This document shows positions 23,268 to 42,718 of a stretch of DNA of 64,000 nucleotides, piece after piece. The position numbers were made by a program, and so were the translations under genes. This stretch comes from Alphaproteobacteria bacterium (GTDB lineage: Bacteria > Pseudomonadota > Alphaproteobacteria > MPNO01 > UBA830): assembly GCA_964291215.2 (NCBI GenBank), contig OZ219790.1:2496001-2560000 (forward strand), in the 5' to 3' direction. The notes under the pieces are model-generated. The model did not search any database. It was not told the origin of the DNA and worked only from the letters and a program-made list of their open reading frames with translations. The first letter of the stretch is position 1. The number at the start of each line of letters is the position of its first letter.

Positions 23268-24245
23268 TTAGCCTTCTAACTGATAGTGCGCGCACACATT
23301 CTGACATTTCCAAGCGAGCATCGGCATTGTGGCGATCCGCGTTCGGATTTCCGGCGAAACATCAAGCAGATCAGCGTTGGCCTCGCCGCGATCCAAAACG
23401 CTGTCCAAGAATTCCTGCTCTGCCGTCGTCAGGTCAAACAGAAGCGCGAATCGCTCGCGACACAGCGCGATCGTCTCCTCGATCCATGCGTCGATCGCCC
23501 CCTTGCCGCCGAAATAGTCCCGCGGCAAACAGATTGTGAGCTTCTGACGAAGCTCCCGCGGGTCGCCCTTGATCGCGTCGATGGAAACGGTTCGCCAATC
23601 ACGGCGCGCGCAGGCGCCGAACGCCAGAAACGCGCCTTTGATGTTCTTCCAGTCGAGCCCCTCGATCGACAGGATACGCCGCGCGTCGAAGAGGTCGCGC
23701 GCGGCGTGGCGATCAAAAAGCGCAACGAGCTTGCCGGCGATAACCTCCTGAAGATTGATTACCAGCACGTCCCTCGCATGCATGTCCCCGAGCGGGACCG
23801 ACGACATACGAGCGGCGCCAAACAAAGGTTGACGCGCCATGTAGTTCACGTCGAGCTCCAATGTCGCATTTCCACCGAGCGCCGAGGCAAAGCGCATGAT
23901 CCACTTGCCGCCGGCATGCTCATCCGGCTTTCGGCGAATATCGTATCCTTGGGAGGCAAGGAGCCGGTTGAGAGCGGCCTCGACATCTGGCCGCTCAGTC
24001 TCCATGGCCGCACGGTCGAGCGCACCGACATAGTTGAGGTCGATGTCGACCGATAAACGATCGAGGCCGAGATGAAAGACATTGAGCGCCGTGCCGCCCT
24101 TGAGCACGAGTCGCTCACTCAGAACTCGGTCACTCGCGATTTCCTGAAGAATGTCGAGGAGGCGCATCACCTTTTCGAGGGAGCCTGCCTGATAGCCGGT
24201 CTCGCCGACGATGCGCTGTAGGGTCTGGATCGAGGGCGCCGCCAT
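23268..24245 (-). CDS. AbiEii-family nucleotidyltransferase toxin (type IV TA)
   Basis: LEKVMRLL, LVLKGGTALN, RLSVDIDL, IAGKLVAL..RHAARDLFD. Confidence 0.92.
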   Translation of the reverse strand: MAAPSIQTLQRIVGETGYQAGSLEKVMRLLDILQEIASDRVLSERLVLKGGTALNVFHLGLDRLSVDIDLNYVGALDRAAMETERPDVEAALNRLLASQGYDIRRKPDEHAGGKWIMRFASALGGNATLELDVNYMARQPLFGAARMSSVPLGDMHARDVLVINLQEVIAGKLVALFDRHAARDLFDARRILSIEGLDWKNIKGAFLAFGACARRDWRTVSIDAIKGDPRELRQKLTICLPRDYFGGKGAIDAWIEETIALCRERFALLFDLTTAEQEFLDSVLDRGEANADLLDVSPEIRTRIATMPMLAWKCQNVCAHYQLEG

Positions 24246-25055
24246 TTATACGCCCTCGAACTGAGGTTCTATGACCTCGACAGGCAGGATGACATTCCAG
24301 CCCGCAGCCGTCCGCCCTTCCCCCGGTTTGGCGGCTAGGGCGTATCGCGCCTGTCGCGGGGCGAGCGCGTGCAGCTTTTTGAGCGCGGTGCTTTCTACAC
24401 CGAGCCGACCCTGTTCGCGCTCCAGCCAGTATCCCAAGGCGCCGGCCGCCGTCGCATTGCCGAGCGCGCGCGCGTGCCGGACCAAGGCAGTGGCATCGAC
24501 TCGCGCGACGAGATCGAGCGAATTGAAAAGCTCCTCCGCGCCGCCCGCGAGATCATAGCGATCGAAGAGATCGGCGATCGTCCGCTCGATCGTCGTCACG
24601 CGAACGCCGAGGCCCATACGGTCAACGACCATGACGCCGTCCGCCAGGCTGCCGTTTTTCTGAGCAAAGCCCCGCGGCGGTTTCACGAACCGGCACGAGA
24701 ACTCGGATGTCTCGACGACGCCCGGCTCGCCGGGCGCAATGACCTGCGCCTCATGGCCTTCCGTATAGGCGCAGCCGTGAAGCTCAAGGGCCGAGTGATA
24801 GGCGATGACGCCGCCGCGCCGCAGGCGCGACGCCGCCAGGAAACGGTCGCCCAACCATTTGGCGGAATCGGCATGCTTGGGGACTGACGCGAAGACACCC
24901 CGTGCGATGCGCTTGATATTGCCGGCCCGAAGGTGCTGGGCGAGCATCGCCGTGACCACCTTGTCATCGGGGCGACGGCCAACCGCGGCGGCATACTCGG
25001 CCCGGTCGAAGACCGGCCTGGCGCTGAAAAACGGGGCTGAAACGAGCCGAGACAT
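24246..25055 (-). CDS. AbiEi-family antitoxin / transcriptional regulator
   Basis: N-terminal wHTH (IKRIARGVF), IAYHSALELHG, VTTIERTIAD; directly abuts abiEii. Confidence 0.88.
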   Translation of the reverse strand: MSRLVSAPFFSARPVFDRAEYAAAVGRRPDDKVVTAMLAQHLRAGNIKRIARGVFASVPKHADSAKWLGDRFLAASRLRRGGVIAYHSALELHGCAYTEGHEAQVIAPGEPGVVETSEFSCRFVKPPRGFAQKNGSLADGVMVVDRMGLGVRVTTIERTIADLFDRYDLAGGAEELFNSLDLVARVDATALVRHARALGNATAAGALGYWLEREQGRLGVESTALKKLHALAPRQARYALAAKPGEGRTAAGWNVILPVEVIEPQFEGV

Positions 25056-30742: not shown

Positions 30743-31170
30743 CGGGCGTGAATCTCGTATGGCGATGATGGCGCTGGGCTGAGGGTCAGGGTTCATGCGG
30801 CGCGGCTGTGTTGGTTTCCGGTGCGTTTGTTTTCGTTTGCGGGGGTATCGGCATCGCTCATGAGGGCATTCCATGCGCGGTCGAAGCGTCCGGATTTGAT
30901 GAGGGCGCGTACGGTGAGTACGGCCTGGCCGCCGGCGATGCGCCATCGCATGCCGGAGCGCTTCATTCTCTGTGTGACGAGGGTTTTGTTTGCGGCCTCG
31001 ACGACGCCCGAGCCGATGGCGACGCCGCGGTCGCTGAGGTTGCGGTATCGCATGCGCTTGCGGTGTTTGCGGAAGAAGGCGAGTTTGCGTTCGACGGCGT
31101 TGCGCGCGGCGCGGTTGCTGCCTGCCTTGTCGCGCAGGTAGCGCAGCGCCCGGATCACCCTGGCGACTTC
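30743..31170 (-). pseudogene. ISKra4-family transposase 3' fragment with right IR
   Basis: FFRKHRKRMRY..IGSGVVEAANKTLVTQRMKRSGMRW; IR GGGCGTGAATCTCGTATGGC. Confidence 0.8.
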
Positions 31171-31186
31171 TGACCTTTCCAGCCTG

Positions 31187-32179
31187 TCAACACGGTTGCA
31201 AAGAAGTCACGGCATGTTCAAGGGCTCCCGGCAGCCGCGGATCCAGGGTGATCGTCTCCTGCTCAAGCCACAGTCCCCGGCGCTGCAGGTCCTGCACGAG
31301 GCTGGGCACCCCAGAGAGATCAAGGTCATCGGGCCACGGCTTGCGTTGTGCCCGGTCCGGCAGCCATTCCCGCCAGAAATCCGGCACCGTCCATTGAAGC
31401 CGGGGGTAGCGCTGCCGGAGGGACCCCACGATCCGGGTTCCCTCGGGATCCAGATCGCCGAAATGAACTATGGGAACGCCCTCAAGCTGGTCCAGAATCC
31501 GCACGGCCGCGGCGGTGTTCCATCCCGGGACGTGAACGACCATCCAGTCCGGCGGCGCCGGGACGTCCATATAGGGGCCAAGGTTCTCAACGGTCAGAAC
31601 CGCACGCGGGCGGTCCCCGGCGAGTCGGGTGCCGTCCCGGAGCGCCCTTTCGTTCAGCGCCACCTCGCCCGCGACTCCAACGAGCAGGGACGCTGCCACC
31701 CGACAGGAGGTGGTCTCGAGAACCAAGCCCCGGTTCGGACGAAGCCGCGCGATGCCGTCATTCGTGATATCGATGCCCTCGAGGGCCGAGCGGCGCTCGC
31801 CGGTGAACCCGGCCTTCGAGTGCGGCCCGACCAGGGCGGCGGCCGTCTTGGTGTTCAAGCGTCCCGGCAGTGCCCCGGCCTGGGAGGCCCGATCCCGGTC
31901 CCGGAGGCGCTTCCATCCCTCGTGTGTCACCGGCAGGCCGGCCTGGACCAGCCGCTCCCGGGCGACGCGCCATTCGGGCCAGCGCCCGTCGAGCATGTCC
32001 TCGGCGTCGGCCCGGAACGAAGGGACGAACTCGAGTTCGTTGCGCCGTCCCGTCGTCCTGGTCCAGGGAAGACCGGCGGCGAACTCCCAGGCGGCTCTCT
32101 GTCCCTCCCGGAGGCCCAGACGTCCCTCGTGGACCAGCTCGACCAGCGCAAGCCTGTTCTCGTCCCGGTCCCACATCAC
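31187..32179 (-). CDS. Toprim-domain putative nuclease, Wadjet JetD/MksG-like (DUF2399-like C-terminus)
   Basis: VLTVENLGPY (conserved Toprim Glu), HVPGWNT, HFGDLDPEG (DxD), WLEQE; GTGA overlap with the mukB stop. Confidence 0.82.
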   Translation of the reverse strand: MMWDRDENRLALVELVHEGRLGLREGQRAAWEFAAGLPWTRTTGRRNELEFVPSFRADAEDMLDGRWPEWRVARERLVQAGLPVTHEGWKRLRDRDRASQAGALPGRLNTKTAAALVGPHSKAGFTGERRSALEGIDITNDGIARLRPNRGLVLETTSCRVAASLLVGVAGEVALNERALRDGTRLAGDRPRAVLTVENLGPYMDVPAPPDWMVVHVPGWNTAAAVRILDQLEGVPIVHFGDLDPEGTRIVGSLRQRYPRLQWTVPDFWREWLPDRAQRKPWPDDLDLSGVPSLVQDLQRRGLWLEQETITLDPRLPGALEHAVTSLQPC

Positions 32180-35100
32180 GCGGCCTCGGCCTCGGCCCGA
32201 ATGGCGCGCCGGCCGGTGACCCGGACCTCTTCGCCGCCTTCGCCGTCGGCCACGCGCACCAGGTGGTAGGTCGTATTGCCTTCCGCCCGCCCGACCTCAG
32301 GGGCCGCTACCAGCAGCTGGAGGTCGAGACTGGCGCAGAGGTCGAAGAGCATCCCCAGATTGTCGCGGTCGAGCCGGTTCGCCTCGTCGAGAAGAAGGAG
32401 CCTGAGCGTGCTGTCGGCGCTCCGGGCCTTGAACAGGCGGGCGTCATGCTCCCATGCCGTGAGCACCACCATCATGAGAGCCGCCCCGATCCCGATGCTC
32501 TCTCCGGTCGAGAGGTGGGTGGGGTTCGCGGCTTCCCAGCCGGTCCCGGAATTTCGCCAGACCTCGACGCGCGGGTCGACATACTCCCGATAATCGAGCA
32601 GCCGCTCTCCCTGCGCCCGCCCGCCCGCATATTTCCGGAGCAGGTCGTTCAGGGCCTCTTCCAGGGGACGGTCGGCAGCGAACAGGCCGCCCTGGTCGTC
32701 TCTGTCCCGGAGGGCGTCCAGGATGTTCGTCATCTCCGACACGCGGCCCAGCCTCAGCCTGACCCCGGCAATGCTGCCGAACCGGACCCCGTCGAGGTCC
32801 GTGTTGAGCTTGGCGATTTCCCGGTCCGCCCGGCGGATATGCACCCCGATGGCGTTGGCCACGTCCGTCGTCTTGCCCTGGAGTTCGGTCTCTTGGCGCA
32901 CGAGACGCTCCTGGAGGGCACCAAGCTGGCTGCGGAGCCTCGTGAGCGCCTCCAGAGGGTCGTCCATCTGGGCGATCTGGGCGGGGATGCGGCGCTGCAT
33001 CCAGACGCGCACCTCGCGCCAGGCGTGCAAGTAAGCCTCACCCGGCCGGGCTCCCTCCTCAAGACGGAAAAGCCCATTGACCACATTGGCGGCTTCGCAG
33101 CCTGGCTCGGCACGGGCGAGACGCTCGTGAAGCCTCCCGGCATAGGTGCGCGCGTCGCCATACAGGGCGGCGCTGGCGGTGCGACCGTCCGGGCCAGACA
33201 GGCCGGCAAGCAGGCCGTCGGCTTCGGCGTCGGCGCGCAGGCGCTTCCAGCGCTGGTGCGCGGGCTCTGCGGCCGCACGGCGCTCATTCAGGGCCTGACG
33301 GGCCCGGGTGCGCGCCTGGCGCTGTTGGTCAAGGCGGTACTGAAGCACCGCTCGCCGGCCGTGCAGCTCGCGCGACAGCCTGTCGGCTTCCCCGTGGCTG
33401 CGCTGACATTTGTCGAGGTGCTCGCGGCCGCTTGCCAGGGCGGCCTCGCCTGCATCCTCGATGCCGAGTCCGGCAAGTGTGGTGCGGGCGACGGCGATAT
33501 CGGCCAGCTTCCTCTGGAGATTGTCGATGGCGCCGAGTGCGCGGTCGATCCCGCGGCTCCGGTCCCTCACCGCCCGGATGTCGGCGCCGGTCCGGGCCAA
33601 CTCCTCTTCGAGGTCCCGGATCAGGGTCTCGCGGGCCCGGCGACCCAGCACAGGCCGGTCCGGGACCCGGCTCACCCTCATCACGTCCGGGCTGCTCCGG
33701 ACGATCACGGAATCGCCGGCAGGGCTGCTTTGGGAGGCTTCTCCTGCCAGGCCGCCGTCCAGGGCCTCGGGGCGGGCGAGCCAGACCGTGTCCGGTCGGT
33801 CTTTGATGTCGGCCACCGTCCGGGCGGCAGCCTCCAGGTCGTCCACGAGGACCGCTTCGACCAACGGGCCCAGCCGGGCCTGCCGGGCCCCGGCCTCCGC
33901 GATCCCGATATCCTCGAACTTCTCCGCGGCCGTCGGCGCGCCCAGGCGGGTGGCGATGGCCCGGAGGACGGCCGGCAGGCTGCCGCCGGCCTCCCGGAGG
34001 GAGCGCAGCCCGGCCTCGGTCTTCTTGCGCGTCTCTTCCAGCCGGGCGGCTTCGTCGCGGGCTTCGTCGCGCTGGGCGAACAGCGCCTGGCGGCGGTCGT
34101 CGACATAGCCTTCGGCATGGACGTCGCCGTCCCAGCCATGGGTCCGGCAAAGTGCCGCGACCTCCATGCCGACCCGCTCCTGGACCTCCTGTTGGGCGCG
34201 GCCGGACTCCAGCCGCTGATAGTGGTCCTCGGCCTGCTTCAGGGCGGACGCGAGGGTCTTCAAGCGCTCGCCGAGCACCTCGGCCTCCTTCACGACCCCG
34301 TCGAGTTCCGTCGCGGCGGCGGTGACGTCGTGCTCCGCGCGGCCCAACGCCTCCTCGGCCTCGGCGATGCCGCCGGCCGCTTCGCTGGCGGCCTGTTCGG
34401 TGGCCTGGGCAGCGGCCCGGAACATGTTCTGGCCAGCCTCGAAGACGTCGGATATCTCGGTTTCGAGCCTGCGGGCGTCATCGACCTCGCCGCGTGTGCG
34501 CCGGCAGGCGTCGATATTGGAGCGCATCCGCTTCAGAGTGGCGGCGAGACCGCCTTCCTCCTTCAGCAGGAAGGCGCGCAGCCCGGTGGTCAGAACCTGC
34601 GACATCCCGCCTGTCATGCTAGTGCGCAGCATCTCTGCGACTTTCCGGCGCTCGCCTTCGCGCTCGAGGCGCAGCGGGGACACACCGCGCTCGAACAGGG
34701 CACTGAAATACTCCTTCGCCGTTGCACAGACATGGAAGTTCGCCCCGTGGCGGCCGGCCTGCACCCGGAGTTCTTCTATCTCCGGGACAGCGTCCTTGTC
34801 GGTCCCGCGCAGGAGCAGGAGATTCTGGAGCCGCGCGCCATGCGGAAAGTCGGTGATGAAGAACGAGGTTAGTTCCACGACCGGCTCGGCGCGCCGCTCC
34901 AGGCGTACGCCGGCGAGGAAGCGCTCGCCGTTCGCGAGGGTAAAGTCGAGCACGGCGTAGGCCGGCCGTCCCGCCTCGCCGAGACGGCCCCAGATGCCTC
35001 GGTCTCCACTGGAGCCAGCCGCAGCGAACCGCAGATGGTTCATATCGGGGAGCAAGGCGACGAACGCGGCGATGAGGACCGTCGTCTTGCCGGCCCCGTT

Positions 35101-35214
35101 CGCCCCTTCCAGAGCAGTGACGGTATGGCTCAGTTCATAGCGCTCGTAGAACACGCCGCGCCAGTTGACGAGGGCGAGCTGGGCCGCCCTGGCTCGTTTG
35201 GTGGCCGGTTTCAT
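32176..35214 (-). CDS. mukB: SMC-family ATPase MukB (1012 aa, shortened arms)
   Basis: LALVNWRG..Walker A GANGAGKTT..AFVALLPD; MukB hinge (FEDIGIAEAG..LGPLVEAVLVDDL..RPDTVWL); LLDYREY, signature LSTGESIG, Walker B LLLLDEANRLD, QLLVAAPE..TTYHLVR. Confidence 0.93.
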   Translation of the reverse strand: MKPATKRARAAQLALVNWRGVFYERYELSHTVTALEGANGAGKTTVLIAAFVALLPDMNHLRFAAAGSSGDRGIWGRLGEAGRPAYAVLDFTLANGERFLAGVRLERRAEPVVELTSFFITDFPHGARLQNLLLLRGTDKDAVPEIEELRVQAGRHGANFHVCATAKEYFSALFERGVSPLRLEREGERRKVAEMLRTSMTGGMSQVLTTGLRAFLLKEEGGLAATLKRMRSNIDACRRTRGEVDDARRLETEISDVFEAGQNMFRAAAQATEQAASEAAGGIAEAEEALGRAEHDVTAAATELDGVVKEAEVLGERLKTLASALKQAEDHYQRLESGRAQQEVQERVGMEVAALCRTHGWDGDVHAEGYVDDRRQALFAQRDEARDEAARLEETRKKTEAGLRSLREAGGSLPAVLRAIATRLGAPTAAEKFEDIGIAEAGARQARLGPLVEAVLVDDLEAAARTVADIKDRPDTVWLARPEALDGGLAGEASQSSPAGDSVIVRSSPDVMRVSRVPDRPVLGRRARETLIRDLEEELARTGADIRAVRDRSRGIDRALGAIDNLQRKLADIAVARTTLAGLGIEDAGEAALASGREHLDKCQRSHGEADRLSRELHGRRAVLQYRLDQQRQARTRARQALNERRAAAEPAHQRWKRLRADAEADGLLAGLSGPDGRTASAALYGDARTYAGRLHERLARAEPGCEAANVVNGLFRLEEGARPGEAYLHAWREVRVWMQRRIPAQIAQMDDPLEALTRLRSQLGALQERLVRQETELQGKTTDVANAIGVHIRRADREIAKLNTDLDGVRFGSIAGVRLRLGRVSEMTNILDALRDRDDQGGLFAADRPLEEALNDLLRKYAGGRAQGERLLDYREYVDPRVEVWRNSGTGWEAANPTHLSTGESIGIGAALMMVVLTAWEHDARLFKARSADSTLRLLLLDEANRLDRDNLGMLFDLCASLDLQLLVAAPEVGRAEGNTTYHLVRVADGEGGEEVRVTGRRAIRAEAEAA

Positions 35215-35882
35215 GGCTCCTCCTCCGCGAGGCCGGCGTCGTCATCGGTGGTGTCGGCGGTCTCGACCGAGCCCTCGGCGACCAGCCGTTCCAAGGCCCG
35301 GGACCGGTCCTCAAGCGACCGGACCGGCTCCGCAAACCGGAGCAGGGCCGAATACAGCCGGATCTCCCGCTCGTCCGCCGAATAAGCCACGAACCCGAGG
35401 TCGTCCAGGCTGCGCAGGGCGCGCGTGACCGCTTTGCGTACGCCTTCCTCATCGACCCTCTCCGCGCTGCGTTTCTGGTGTCCGCCCCGGAGTTCGGAGA
35501 TCAGCCGTCCCCTGCCGACCAGGGCTTCAAGTCTGCGGACCAGCTCTTCGTCCTTCAGAATGCCGCCGTCGCTGACGGTCCGGGGATCGAGGTAAAACAG
35601 GGCGAGCGTCTGGCCGACGAGCATCTCGGCCCCGGACAGCCGGGCGCGGCCGAGCCGGTCTCCGCGCGGGACCAAATGGAAATAGCCGTCCGCGGCATGG
35701 CGCAGGTCGCAATCGTACCGGCCATAAAAGTCCTCCAGCCAGGCCTGCGCATCGCGCAGAAACCCGTACTGTTCCCCATCATGGGCGTTGATGTGCCGGC
35801 CCCGGCGCAGGCCGATATCGACCTCGGCGAAGAGAGGGGCGGTGACGACATCTTCCAGGCGCCGGAACCTCTCTTCGCTCAT
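35211..35882 (-). CDS. mukE: KITE subunit MukE
   Basis: PLFAEVDIGLRRGRHI..LEDFYGRYDCDLRHAADGYFHLVPR..LSGAEMLVGQTLALFYLDP..LLRFAEPVR; ATGA overlaps with mukF and mukB. Confidence 0.9.
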   Translation of the reverse strand: MSEERFRRLEDVVTAPLFAEVDIGLRRGRHINAHDGEQYGFLRDAQAWLEDFYGRYDCDLRHAADGYFHLVPRGDRLGRARLSGAEMLVGQTLALFYLDPRTVSDGGILKDEELVRRLEALVGRGRLISELRGGHQKRSAERVDEEGVRKAVTRALRSLDDLGFVAYSADEREIRLYSALLRFAEPVRSLEDRSRALERLVAEGSVETADTTDDDAGLAEEEP

Positions 35883-37186
35883 TTCCCGGACTCCCGACGC
35901 AGTGGCCAGTCCTCGATCTCGTATCCGCCGGGGAGCGTCACCCACGGGCGGTCCTTGCCGGGCGGCAGCGCCGCACGCTCCGCGACCAGGGCTGCGACCT
36001 CTCCGATCGCCGGGTAGCGCCGGTCCTCGTCGAGCCCCGCCAGGACCTCGCGCACCACGCTTGCGAGCGTGTCCGGTGATCGGGCAAGGGCGTCGGTGGC
36101 CCGTTGCACGATTTCGGCAGGGTCCGGGCCGTCCGGCATGTCGTCGAGCTCGGCCTCGCGGTCCTTGCTCGGGCGGACGACCGGCGGCCGCTCGATACGG
36201 GTCTCCATATCGCGCAGGACCCGCATGGGCCGCGGCTGCGGGATGACCAGAAAGAACCGGTTGCCGGGCCAGCCGGCAAGCTGGTCGCGCAGGCGTTCGC
36301 TGAGGGCCCGGTCCGGGTCCAGGCGCACGACATCGCGCAGATAGCCATGAATGTACTCGTAATAGTCGGACCAGGACTTCTGGCGGGCATTGCCCCAGGC
36401 CGCGATACGGTCGAGATGGTCGGCGACCTTCCGGGCCTCCTGGGCGGCTCTAGGGAGCTCCCAGTCTTCGGCCGCCTGTTCGATGTCCTGGAGAAGGCCC
36501 TGCATCTGGTGGACCCGGCTGAGCAGCACCGTCTTCAGTTCGGCGAGGGTTCTGGCGGAATCCGAGAGCAGGTCCTCGCATTCGTCGATGGCCGCGAACC
36601 AGTCCTTGGCCAGCAGGTCGGAAATGCGGGCCTTGAGGGCCTCCTGCTGGCGTTCCAGGCCACGCTGGCGGCGGTCGATGCCTGTCACCAGGTCCCTGAC
36701 GGTCACCCGGAGCGGCCCGACGACGGCATCGGCGCGCTCCAGGCCGGTCCTCGCTTGGCGGGCGGCGCCCAGGACTTCGGTGAGGGCGGCTATGACCTGG
36801 CCGGTGAGAAGGTCGAGGGATTCCCTGTCGAGAATGTCGCGGCTGTCGGCAATGAAGAACTCGACGATGCCGGTGGACAGAAGCGTCAGGCTGTAATCGC
36901 CGGGCCGGGCGAGGCCGTCGCCGTCGATGCGGGCGAGGAGACCCTGTTCGCGCAGGCGCTGGATGGCGAGCGTAGCCCGTCTGCGCGGGTTTTCGGCGCC
37001 GGGCTCGACGAGATCGCAGACCTGCTCGAACACGGCGACCATGTCTTCGTCTTCCAGGGCGCTGAGGCCCTGCTCGTGGCCCCGGGCGTACAGGGCGGCG
37101 AGGAAGCAGAGATCGATGGTCTTGATATCGAGCGCGGCCCCGAGATGGTGCAGCGAAGCGACAAGCCGTGATGAATCCACTGACAC
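35879..37186 (-). CDS. mukF: Kleisin subunit MukF
   Basis: DLCFLAAL..AIQRLREQGLLAR..YSLTLL..PLRVTVRDLVTGIDRRQRGL..ISDLLAKDWFAAIDECEDLLSDSARTLAEL..LDRIAAWG..YYEYIHGYLRDVVRLDPDRALSERLR; 435 aa. Confidence 0.9.
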   Translation of the reverse strand: MSVDSSRLVASLHHLGAALDIKTIDLCFLAALYARGHEQGLSALEDEDMVAVFEQVCDLVEPGAENPRRRATLAIQRLREQGLLARIDGDGLARPGDYSLTLLSTGIVEFFIADSRDILDRESLDLLTGQVIAALTEVLGAARQARTGLERADAVVGPLRVTVRDLVTGIDRRQRGLERQQEALKARISDLLAKDWFAAIDECEDLLSDSARTLAELKTVLLSRVHQMQGLLQDIEQAAEDWELPRAAQEARKVADHLDRIAAWGNARQKSWSDYYEYIHGYLRDVVRLDPDRALSERLRDQLAGWPGNRFFLVIPQPRPMRVLRDMETRIERPPVVRPSKDREAELDDMPDGPDPAEIVQRATDALARSPDTLASVVREVLAGLDEDRRYPAIGEVAALVAERAALPPGKDRPWVTLPGGYEIEDWPLRRESGK

Positions 37187-37199
37187 GTTCTTTCTTTCG

Positions 37200-37410
37200 T
37201 CGATATGCCCCGTTGCCGATGCTTGAGGCCTCGTGGCGGCGCAACCCGCAGCCGAACATCAGCGCGAGCGCCGCCGCGTCGCGCGCCCCGGACACCGTTC
37301 CGTCGGCGCACGCCCGGAACAGCGCCGCGCACTCGCCCTCCTCCAGAGCCCGGCCGGGCGGCTTCCGGCTCCCCTTCACCGGCTTGACCCTCGCTTCCCG
37401 TATAAGGCTG
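37200..37410 (-). pseudogene. Tyrosine recombinase fragment
   Basis: GRALEEGECAALFRAC..GARDAAALALMFGCGLRRHE (box I Arg). Confidence 0.72.
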
Positions 37411-37956: not shown

Positions 37957-39966
37957 CAAGGAGATCCCATGCTTGTTGCTGTGATGCGATCGGAGTCTTG
38001 ATCGCGGCGCGGGTCGACGCGTTCGAGTCTGCGATTTGAGATGTGCGGACATCTGCGGCCCGGTGGCGGCGCGGATCGGGGCGCGAGGGGTCCGTTTCGG
38101 CGGATCCGGGGCGAGCGAGAGGCCTGCCGGGTTGGGTGGCCAGGCTCGGATACTTGCGGTTTCGGTCGGGTTGTGAGCGCAGTCAGCCGGGTCTTGTGAC
38201 GGCGTGCAGGACCTGCTTGCGTTTGTCGGCATAGTGGTGACGGGCGTCGGCGAAGCTGTGGAAGGGCTGGGGCAGCTTCCGCTGGTTGTGGATGATGACC
38301 GCAATGGCGAGGGTGTTGATGATCGCGTTGTTTGCGGGCGCGTTCGGAGCTTGGAGTCGTCTTCGCGGAAGGTGGCGTCGCGGATGTGATGATGGCTTTC
38401 GACCACCCAGTGACCGCGGTTCCATGCGAGTAGCTGTTGCGGCGAGGCGCGTTCGGCCGCGACCGAGGTCATGGCGTGCTCGGTGGTCCGTTTTCCGGAT
38501 TTCCTGCATTCGACGCGCCGGGTGACACGAAAGATCTGTTTGACTAGTTGATCATCTTCGCGGGCGGGGTGAAGACTTCGATGCTGCGCTGTTCGATGCG
38601 GCCGTGCGTGGGCGTTTCGCGGTAGCGTCCCGTGCTCTCCCAATGGATGCTCTCGAACGTCTCGAAGGTCTTGGGAGCGTTGCCCTTGACTGTCATCATC
38701 CAGTCAGCGCCATGGGTCTCGACGATCAGCCGTGCCGTCTCGCGGGTGGTGTGAAGCGCATCGAGCGTGAGCAGACGGCCGGCCACCGGCGCCGTCGCGG
38801 CGTGGACGGCGGCGATTTCCCCGTCGTGATAGTTGAGGATCGAATGCCGGTCCCGTGCCAGCGAGACCGTCTCGTAATGATCCTTGCCGGTGCGGCCGCG
38901 CTTGCCGTCGACCGCGTGGCCGACCCGCAGGCGCGGCTGCGCGCCGCAGCGCCTCCTCGATCCACGCCGGGTCGGTGTTCTGCAGCACCCGGTGCACGGT
39001 CGATTTGGATACCGGTTCATACCGGCCGGTGTCCGGGTTCTTCCACGCTGCGCCAGATCCTTCTGTGTCATCGCCTTCGCGTAGCGTGCCGCGGCCACCG
39101 CGCCGTGCCAATTCGCCAGCCGCGCCAGCAAGATCACGCACAGCACCGAAGCGATGCCGTGCTTGCGCCCCTGCGCACGCCGGAAAGCGCCGCAAAATGC
39201 TGGTACATGGAGCGCAACTCCCGCGCCGCGCTCTGCGTCGCCCGCAACTCCCACGCCGCAGGAAGTGGCGCACGATCCCGCAACCGACGTCGCGACGCAG
39301 CGGAACCACGTACAGATCCTTCGCCTCCCCGTGCGGATCAGTATAGCGCCCGCGCGCATAGCCCTTGCTCTTGCCCACGCACGTCCAGTTCGCTGCTTTG
39401 TACATGGTGCCGCGGAACTTCGTCGGTGAGACAAACGACTCCGCCACCAGCAACGGATTGCCGTACGCAGCCTCCCAGTCGTCGCTGAGACGCCGCTGCA
39501 TCCGCGACAACGCAAACGAGGCAAGACCTCGAAATGTCCGGCGGCCACCCAGAATCACAAACCTCGTGTTATTTCCGATCAGGTGCAACCGCGCAAACTG
39601 TTCCTCGCGGCGCCAGCCAATCCAACGGTCCCGCGGCGCACAGATGAAGGCACCCGTCTGCCAGCCCGCAGCGCCAATCCACCGCCCGCGCCACGTGAAT
39701 ACGTAGCGCAGACCTCGACCCGCAAATTGCTTGAAACCAAGATACGGTCCACCACACGGTTCCAGCGACACACCTCATCCGGCCGCGCAAGGCGCACCAC
39801 CACATCCCGGAGCGCAAAACCCTCCGGAGTCGTTTCGAAAACATCCGCGGCGCGCTCCATGACAACCACGGATACCACACCGCTTCACAAAAAGCCAGCA
39901 CCAATCCGAATCCTCCGGAACCCGCGGAACCCAGCCTTCCAACCAACCTAGCGTGGGATGGCCGTG
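37957..39966 (-). mobile_element. Degenerate ISAs1-family element with DUF4338 gene (divergent second element)
   Basis: Imperfect IRs CAAGGAGATCCCATGC and GCGTGGGATGGCCGTG. DUF4338 motifs YLGF..LRY..RDRWIGW..NNTRF..RRLSDDW..ESFV..GTMYKAANW. ISAs1 motifs TLDALHT, TVKGN, HGRIEQR, RGHWVVESHHHIRDATFRED. Confidence 0.82.
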
Positions 39967-40639: not shown

Positions 40640-41244
40640 GTGGGGTATTTCGGATCGAAGGCGACGACGGGTCTGAGCCAGGCGCTGATTGCGCTGATGC
40701 CGCCGCACTCTGTCTATATCGAGAGTCACCTGGGGGGCGGTGCGCTGATGAAGCGCAAGCCTGCTGCCGTGCGCTCGATCGGGATCGACCTCGATGAGCG
40801 GGCGCTTGAGGCCTTTGGCTGCGACTACCCGGTGGAGTTGGTGCATGGCTGCGCCCACTCCTTTCTGGCGTCGTTTGCGTTTCTGGGCCCGGAGCTGGTC
40901 TACAGCGATCCGCCCTATCTGCACGCGACCCGGCGTTCGTCGCAGCGCTACCGCTTCGAGTATGCGGAGGCCGACCACGTCGCGCTGCTTGCTATGACGA
41001 CCTGCTGTCGGGCTGGCGCCGGCTGGCGCTGCAGGTGACGACCCAGGCCCGGGTGCGGACCGAGGTGGTGTGGTTCAACTTCGCGCCCGACCGGGTGCAC
41101 TGGGCGCGCTTCGCCGGCCGGAACTTCACCGACCGCCAGCGCATCAAGCGCAAGGCGGCCAACTGGGGCCGGCTCTACGAGGCCATGCCGGCGGGCGAAC
41201 GCCTGGCGGTGCTGGCCGCGATCATGGCCGGCGAGGTCCCGTGA
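40640..41244 (+). pseudogene. DNA adenine methyltransferase, frameshifted by a 55-bp deletion
   Basis: Identical to 314-973 except for the deletion at about 40991. Confidence 0.9.
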
Positions 41245-41322
41245 CGGTGGCGCGAGGACCTCGCCGGCCACGACGAGGCTTTTGCGTGCCTGCAGGACCT
41301 TTTCACCCCACAATGCCTGGCG

Positions 41323-42718
41323 ATGACGGTCATCAAAGCCATCCGGGCCAGGGGCTGCTGCGCCTGAGCGCGGCGCTGGTCAGGGAGAACGACGCGCTGG
41401 AGCGGGAGAACGCCCACTTGCGCGAGCGGATTGCCGAACTCGAGCGCAGTGCCGCGCTCGACAGCACCACCAGCTCCCGGTCGCCGGCCAGCGACGGTCT
41501 GAAGAAGAAGAGCGGACCCCAGCGCACCCGGAGCGGCACGTCCGACAGGCGGCGGCCAGCCACAAGGGAACCACTCTGGAGCGGACCGCGACGCCCGACC
41601 ACGTCGTCGATCATGATCCCTGCGCCTGTGCGGGCTGCGGCGCGCCGCTGTCGGCCGCTGAGCGTCACGGAGCCCCCGTCTGCCGGCAGGTCTTCGATGT
41701 GCCGCAGCCCCTTGAGGTCACCGAGCACCGCTGCCTCTGTGCCGCCTGCGGCACCGTGACGACAGCCGTCTTCCCGAACGGCGCCCCGGTCCAGTACGGG
41801 CCGCGTATCACCGCGTGGGGGACCTACCTGCTGCACGCGCAGTTCATTCCGGAGAAGCGCGTCGCCGAAGTCATGAGCGACCTCTTCGCGGTCAGGCTCT
41901 CAACCGCCACCATCGCCGCCATGGGCAGACGCACCGCCCGGCGCTTCGAGGGCTTCCTCGACCGTGTCGGCGAGATCATCCGCACCGCGGCCCCGGTCAA
42001 ACACCTCGATGAGACCGGCATCCGCATCGCCGCCCGGACCCAATGGCTCCACGTACTGTGCACCCCGTTGCTGACCATCCTGCGCATCGCCGCCGGGCGC
42101 AGCCACATCGACGAGAAGCTCAACGGCATCGTCATCCATGACGACTACGCCACCTACTTCGCTCTCCAAGGCGTGCGCCACGGGGCCTGCAATGCCCATC
42201 ACCTGCGCGAACTCCAAGCCCTGATCGAGATCGAGAACTGGGCAGCCACCACGCACCCGCTCCTCAGCCGTGCCAACAGAGCCGCCCGCTTCGCCCGCAA
42301 GAATGACCGCGACCTGCCCGCTTCACTGGTGGCCCGCATCTCCCGAGCCTGGGACCGCATCCTTGAGCAGGCCATCGCCTCTCACGAAGAGATGGCGCCC
42401 CTCCAGAGCGGAAAGCACGGACGACAAAAGCGCCGCATCGGTCACAACCTCGCCCTCCGGCTCCAGAAATACAAGGAGGGCTGCCTGCGCTTCCTCACCG
42501 ACCCGAGAACCCCCTTCTCGAACAACCAGGCCGAGCGCGACCTCCGCATGGGCAAGCTGCGCCAGAAAATCTCGGGCGGCTTCCGATCAATGCAAGGCGC
42601 CCGCGACTTCGCCAGCCTGCGTTCCGTCATCGCAACAGCCCGAAAGCAACGCTGGAATGTCCTCGAAACCCTGGCGCATCCCGATCCCATGCAGCTGATC
42701 CCGAGACTGCGCCTCTGA
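41323..42718 (+). pseudogene. IS66 family transposase with the same frameshifts as copy 1; main ORF 41699-42718
   Basis: Same 339-aa ORF as 1428-2447. Confidence 0.9.

Follow-up and report, generated by a model that had tools for sequence, protein, structure and literature searches.

Wadjet types I and II encode a kleisin, a KITE subunit, an SMC ATPase and a Toprim nuclease in this order, and type III Wadjet has jetD as the first gene of its operon. Type II is described as having a tandem KITE in the accessible part of 10.1101/2025.03.10.642339. Likewise in its accessible part, Bürmann et al. 2025 (PMC7617805) puts MukBEF in the Wadjet group and maps nuclease loss on a tree, and the portions available to us of 10.1101/2022.10.04.510915, PMC10586767 and 10.1101/2025.03.10.642339 treat the descent of MukBEF from a plasmid-defence complex as an open hypothesis. 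Data S1 of PMC7617805, as far as it was available, lists "FEBG" operons from Sorangium cellulosum So ce56 and So0157-2, and a P. aeruginosa FEBG operon whose genes match in size, a likeness of size only; the available text neither names nor tests the Sorangium FEBG clade. MukBEF in Deltaproteobacteria is mentioned in the accessible part of PMC4255302.

We interrogated an operon of this kind in the window, the whole 64,000-nucleotide stretch of alphaproteobacterial contig OZ219790.1 that was analysed. Four genes lie on the minus strand in the order mukF-mukE-mukB-jetD. They encode a MukF-type kleisin of 435 aa (35879..37186; Pfam MukF_M 1.3e-21, KicB 1.1e-8), a MukE-type subunit with a single KITE, of 223 aa (35211..35882; MukE 7e-34), a short-arm MukB-type SMC ATPase of 1012 aa (32176..35214; MukB 3e-60, MukB_hinge 2e-27), and a JetD/MksG-type Toprim nuclease of a Muk-linked subfamily, of 329-330 aa (31187..32179; JetD_C 1.7e-10). 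In the whole-window sequence all four reading frames are open, intact and overlapping, with junctions ATGA, ATGA and GTGATG, as a sequence-only reading of this DNA had described them. The mukE start was placed at the ATG that agrees with its relatives in the alignment and with the ATGA overlap; the ORF list begins 63 nt earlier. The conserved cassette extends over 31168..37221 on the same strand, as defined by nucleotide identity to the related locus L006 and by metagenome contig ends: the 89% identity to L006 is limited to about 31218-37221, a single contig of metagenome run X3 covers 31168-37221, and contigs of runs X4 and X10 likewise end at 37221. Against L006, dN/dS is 0.21 for mukF, 0.38 for mukB and 0.32 for jetD (the last over 200 codons), indicating purifying selection on the operon genes. 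The RNA run X10 yields contigs over parts of mukF, mukE and mukB at a depth of 4-12, weak support in which DNA carry-over is possible.

The motor subunits resemble MukBEF of E. coli and Photorhabdus, with which they share the MukF_M, KicB, MukE, MukB and MukB_hinge domains. The ATPase has seven sequence matches in the PDB, each of them to MukB, and it retains the Walker A lysine, the signature serine and the Walker B DE pair. However, none of the three proteins reaches its NCBIfam equivalog cut-off (277 of 407 bits for MukF, NF003615; 117 of 250 for MukE; 658 of 699 for MukB), and their identity to the E. coli proteins is 27% for MukF, 33% for MukE and 26-36% for MukB, so that the motor is a divergent member of the Muk family and not a canonical orthologue. 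These scores, a clade separate from gammaproteobacterial MukB and shortened arms led us to abandon the earlier description of a "true MukBEF" motor. The operon further differs from E. coli and Photorhabdus MukBEF in carrying a nuclease and in coexisting with Smc-ScpAB in a host without a MatP match; housekeeping MukBEF would be expected as the sole condensin, with MatP and without nuclease. A missing cmoM, previously regarded as diagnostic, is not: two canonical mukFEB loci likewise lack cmoM between elyC and mukF.

With Wadjet types I-III (E. coli GF4-3, C. glutamicum, N. vireti) the locus shares a co-directional kleisin-KITE-SMC operon, an adjacent nuclease with the Toprim E/DxD residues and the MksG/JetD fold, and a patchy spread beside a housekeeping SMC; with types I and II it also shares the gene order. 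It differs from all three in its Muk-specific kleisin, KITE and hinge. PADLOC profiles find no JetA in the window and weak matches to JetB1 (1e-3), JetC1 (1e-20) and JetD1 (1e-8), in agreement with the earlier placement outside types I-III. Type I does not fit: JetA is unmatched, the ATPase matches JetC1 at 1e-20 against 3e-197 for MukB, and by profile the N-terminal part of JetD does not match that of type I JetD. Nor does type II, given the single 223-aa KITE, a JetC2 match of 3e-9 and 17.5 of 196 bits for TIGR02679. Type III does not fit the position of the nuclease, which is last in the window operon; one JetC3 model was unmatched in the host genome (a search without positive control), and JetC3 is absent among the best 25 of 33 PADLOC matches. 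The Sorangium FEBG operons, in the available part of Data S1, have the same gene order, and the MksG AGP36472.1 (our P0092) is 51% identical to the window nuclease, whereas their MksB measures 1473-1474 aa against 1012 aa, without elbow, in the window. With these two operons already listed there, the family cannot be called undescribed, as it had been. The operon belongs to a branch of the Wadjet group with a Muk-type motor, which in the literature searched has been catalogued without a name; the long-armed form is already known, and we found no description of the short-arm variant, which may be among the 869 operons of PMC7617805, a source partly covered. Because PADLOC Wadjet scores are weak and annotators label the family "chromosome partition protein MukB", defence inventories likely miss it.

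The nuclease was modelled with AlphaFold at a pLDDT of 95.5, and the best Foldseek matches of the model are C. glutamicum MksG (8b7f, 5e-8) and P. aeruginosa JetD (7til, 3e-6). Toprim residues E198, D242 and D244 are invariant in 93 of 93 aligned JetD homologues, which come from the best 120 of 400. By analogy with Wadjet, the elbow-less motor of the MukBEF family and the JetD-type nuclease probably act together as a Wadjet-like barrier, which would extrude and cut plasmids and other small DNA circles and spare the chromosome; an anti-plasmid function is the most likely one for the operon. Following the mechanism models for types I and II in the accessible parts of 10.1101/2022.10.04.510915, PMC10586767 and 10.1101/2025.03.10.642339, two motors would be joined through MukF in a dimer-of-motors assembly and would extrude DNA loops, and a JetD dimer would be triggered once a small circle had been fully extruded. 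The complex would be a nuclease-bearing sister of housekeeping MukBEF, whose line would have lost the nuclease stepwise. It is also conceivable, but in our view unlikely, that the operon serves as an accessory chromosome-maintenance system, in which the motor folds the chromosome and a Topo VI-like Toprim protein resolves tangles or acts as a structural partner instead of an immune effector. Topo VI-A is indeed among the fold matches of the nuclease model, yet MksG and JetD rank best.

Smc is found in the host (809 bits), as are ScpA and ScpB, all elsewhere in the genome; a single MukB match and a single JetD_C match both fall at this operon, and MatP has no match in the host genome. The operon is therefore not the only SMC system of the host. 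Smc matches were also present in 48 of 50 other carrier genomes (37 over the cut-off), and the cassette ATPase is absent from all 60 relatives searched, four of them congeners. These results uphold the view of the cassette as mobile and accessory to Smc-ScpAB and, together with its mobile, defence-island context, argue against a role in maintaining the chromosome.

Pfam searches of 90 chosen ORFs detected IS66, DDE, reverse-transcriptase and DUF2274 relics in the flanks, confirming the decayed IS/ICE surroundings, and mobile relics border the promoter region of the operon. An ORF that abuts the cassette (37222..37379, minus strand) carries a recombinase-like motif by eye, possibly that of a tyrosine recombinase. 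It has no Pfam match at E<=0.001, so that of the recombinase fragment reported beside the operon the motif stands without profile support. Near-identical cassettes occur in sponge metagenomes (five runs from four studies with a share of at least 0.2; X3 and X4 cover the cassette); six runs with a share below 0.2 were left out of this habitat reading. The cassette might instead serve a mobile element, an ICE or megaplasmid, by excluding smaller circles or phage replication intermediates, with the same biochemistry and a different beneficiary. The DUF2274 ICE relic and the recombinase-like fragment nearby fit this proposal, as does a family copy on an 880-kb plasmid. We regard it as quite unlikely, however, because that is one true plasmid record with the family among 72,556, and because L006 similarity ends at the cassette limits, with no common element backbone. 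A further record, L114 (NZ_AP026896.1, 4.9 Mb), is a "plasmid" in PLSDB, but with pfkA, tpiA and cmoM-mukFEB on it this is evidently a chromosome.

Several other features of the window were recorded. An intact-looking AbiEi/AbiEii pair of the type IV toxin-antitoxin/abortive infection kind (23268-25055, minus strand; Pfam 1e-4 and 1e-27) lies 6 kb from the operon. A Pfam DruA match (9e-19; 38704-39771, minus strand) sits amid transposase relics and may belong to an IS-associated homologue instead of to Druantia. Two IS66 copies (799-2447 and 41070-42718, plus strand) have the same Pfam scores and lengths, which suggests recent transposition among older decayed copies.

Compared with E. coli MukB (~1475 aa), the window MukB lacks ~460 residues, a feature absent from the sequence-only reading. 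Among the best 120 of 856 MukB homologues, 96 measure 1430-1500 aa, the window protein and 20 others 1010-1020 aa, and three have other lengths. The long relatives align colinearly with E. coli MukB; two long-arm members, P0204 and P0207, come from named Pseudomonas isolates. All 22 aligned short proteins have lost the same two segments, 253 residues from one arm and 209-212 from the other, which correspond in the alignment to residues ~363-614 and ~826-1032 of E. coli MukB, with edges that can slide in coiled coil. The occurrence of 22 short proteins, together with the metagenome contigs, rules out an assembly artefact. According to the accessible part of 10.1101/464701, substitutions at Y416 and L960 in the E. 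coli MukB elbow produce a mukB-null phenotype; the equivalents of both residues lie inside the two deletions, and the elbow of MukBEF is missing from the short proteins. With a head-to-hinge separation of ~170 residues, the short arm would be near 250 Å long, compared with 580 Å for MukB, 295 Å for E. coli JetC and 286 Å from head to elbow in MukB (10.1101/2025.03.10.642339, accessible part), and the hinge would now sit at about the former elbow position.

A crippled MukB in an operon heading to decay would be compatible with the null effect of elbow mutations in E. coli (10.1101/464701, as available), with the decayed surroundings, and with frameshifts in mukE/jetD of the L006 copy and of one variant in run X2. 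This seems highly improbable, since all 22 short proteins share the in-frame deletions at 51-82% identity and dN/dS is 0.21-0.38. In a head-only tree they form a single clade (SH-aLRT 98) nested within the long ones, indicating that arm loss occurred once and was then kept. E. coli MukB does not work without its elbow, so the argument that the short form is active comes from this conservation. With the elbow-less clade, nature offers a way to ask if loop extrusion requires the arm to fold and if the length of the arm determines how large a DNA is restricted.

A survey of neighbourhoods supports the proposed Muk-JetD linkage: of 50 loci collected, four are cut by contig ends and 46 are informative; 35 of the latter have the nuclease directly behind mukB, and 11 lack it, a nuclease-less call requiring at least 1 kb downstream. 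Loci with nuclease span Planctomycetota, Myxococcota, Acidobacteriota, Alpha-, Beta- and Gammaproteobacteria and others, and the Toprim E and DxD are retained in all 33 linked nucleases that reach the motifs. Ten of the 11 nuclease-less loci (L019, L024, L025, L034, L035, L038, L044, L047, L049, L051 and L054) are titled Myxococcota, and they fall on more than one tree branch, possibly as independent domestications. No nuclease was found elsewhere in 5 of 5 such genomes searched, in a search without positive control, which together with the 11 loci suggests that the motor can persist alone; such persistence in Myxococcota would suit a chromosomal role. The Burkholderia megaplasmid copy adjoins nucleotidyltransferase, ThiF, JAB, SAVED and WYL genes, which we read as CBASS-type genes and a WYL regulator. 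At 1e-10, PADLOC matched 22 of 125 flank ORFs by nuclease-bearing loci and 3 of 41 by nuclease-less ones (ORFs chosen by a crude codon filter, with one of 126 dropped for size); many of these matches are generic ATPases, so the support from defence context is modest.

To place the family, an SMC-head tree of 363 columns was set against seven JetC matches and one Smc (shortened search; one type II and no type III JetC). The window clade received a UFBoot of 98, canonical MukB 93, and both together 93. Head identity of the window protein is 17-27% to the JetC matches and 34-38% to gammaproteobacterial MukB. In an AU test, from which one long-branch row was dropped, rooting with Muk monophyly was best by 10-19 log units, with p of 0.15 and 0.24 for the alternatives; an earlier quick, suboptimal run had slightly favoured an alternative. 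On the best tree, with other rootings not rejected, the window family appears to be the sister of housekeeping MukBEF. Against six type I JetDs, the JetD tree gives SH-aLRT values of 99 for the window type, 95 for gamma-linked copies and 94 for both together, and a profile of the N-terminal part of JetD finds the gamma-linked copies (E 4e-13 to 6e-4) and not type I JetD (E at least 0.64). Since the JetD tree mirrors the SMC tree and the profile separates the groups cleanly, motor and nuclease look co-inherited from a four-gene ancestor. A Muk-type motor with a conserved JetD, and these two trees, strengthen the suggested link between Wadjet and housekeeping MukBEF. JetC2 was not found in 201 genomes of the phylum, nor JetC3 in 301; one JetC2 came from another search.

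The same nuclease subfamily is present beside canonical MukBEF. In Aeromonas caviae KAM479, a plasmid-collection search revealed a JetD homologue that lies 7.2 kb beyond cmoM-mukFEB on the downstream side, and its relatives bear names from throughout Aeromonas; no paper on JetD with MukBEF in Aeromonas was found in the literature searched. In the order of genome G203, a joint profile matched 20 of 301 genomes (6 of 6 in family f113, 13 of 18 in f115, one weak match elsewhere) and none in four families with canonical MukB (0/20, 0/19, 0/19 and 0/18); 49 of 81 f115 genomes match the JetD profile. In 13 gammaproteobacterial genomes jetD starts at most 44 nt from the canonical mukB stop or overlaps it (f113, 2 of 6; genus g288, 8 of 10 examined; g294, 3 of 11). 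One of these coupled genes is intact, in G616, which has Smc; the other 12 are degenerate, with E and/or the second D lost, and Smc over the cut-off is absent in 7 of 7 such genomes tested (one 65% complete). Sixteen genomes were examined in genus g259, for which the name "Aeromonas-like" was inferred: in 10 of them an intact jetD lies co-directionally 2.4-10.2 kb after mukB, and of the other six, four had at most 7 kb of upstream sequence. A second, degenerate copy lies elsewhere in the genome, and Smc is present in 3 of 3 tested. No jetD was found downstream of mukB at 11 other canonical regions (~3 kb) or in E. coli (1 kb).

The genomes with jetD are kin and not independent events. The jetD series beside canonical mukB is a graded record of MukBEF domestication, and from its decay we infer a direction from defence to housekeeping. 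Four f113 genomes without Smc run counter to a neat rule, as they retain an intact jetD unlinked from mukB. Their nuclease, the JetD-family genes that all 28 of the Aeromonas-like genomes retain and the 12 degenerate copies beside canonical mukB would suit chromosome maintenance. Returning to the Wadjet-like barrier, a joint reading can be offered tentatively, as possible rather than probable: a fourth, MukBEF-type Wadjet class would be the nuclease-armed sister of the E. coli condensin, its sponge-associated subclade, having lost the elbow and half of each arm, would still extrude and cut DNA, and Aeromonadaceae and a neighbouring family would preserve every step to a sole condensin; in some of their genomes an intact nuclease may still be armed by housekeeping MukBEF. 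If true, elbow folding would be dispensable for a MukB motor. With the window family and the graded series of jetD genes, natural proteins are available to test the hypothesis of a defence origin.

Further JetD loci were noted in these groups. In genus g251 (L144-L147), an intact JetD lies far from mukB (545 kb in G567), with MukBEF present and Smc unmatched. The degenerate g259 paralogue (L148-L154) precedes an aspC-like gene at the three loci read, and this gene is also the neighbour of the mukB-coupled copy in G738; being widely kept, the degenerate JetD may have a non-nuclease role. Finally, G616 carries, besides canonical mukFEB-jetD and Smc, another FEBG operon, Muk-like and very divergent (L160, G616:C5:2575642-2581090), whose MukB is ~22% identical to that of E. 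coli and which adjoins canonical MukB in both trees.
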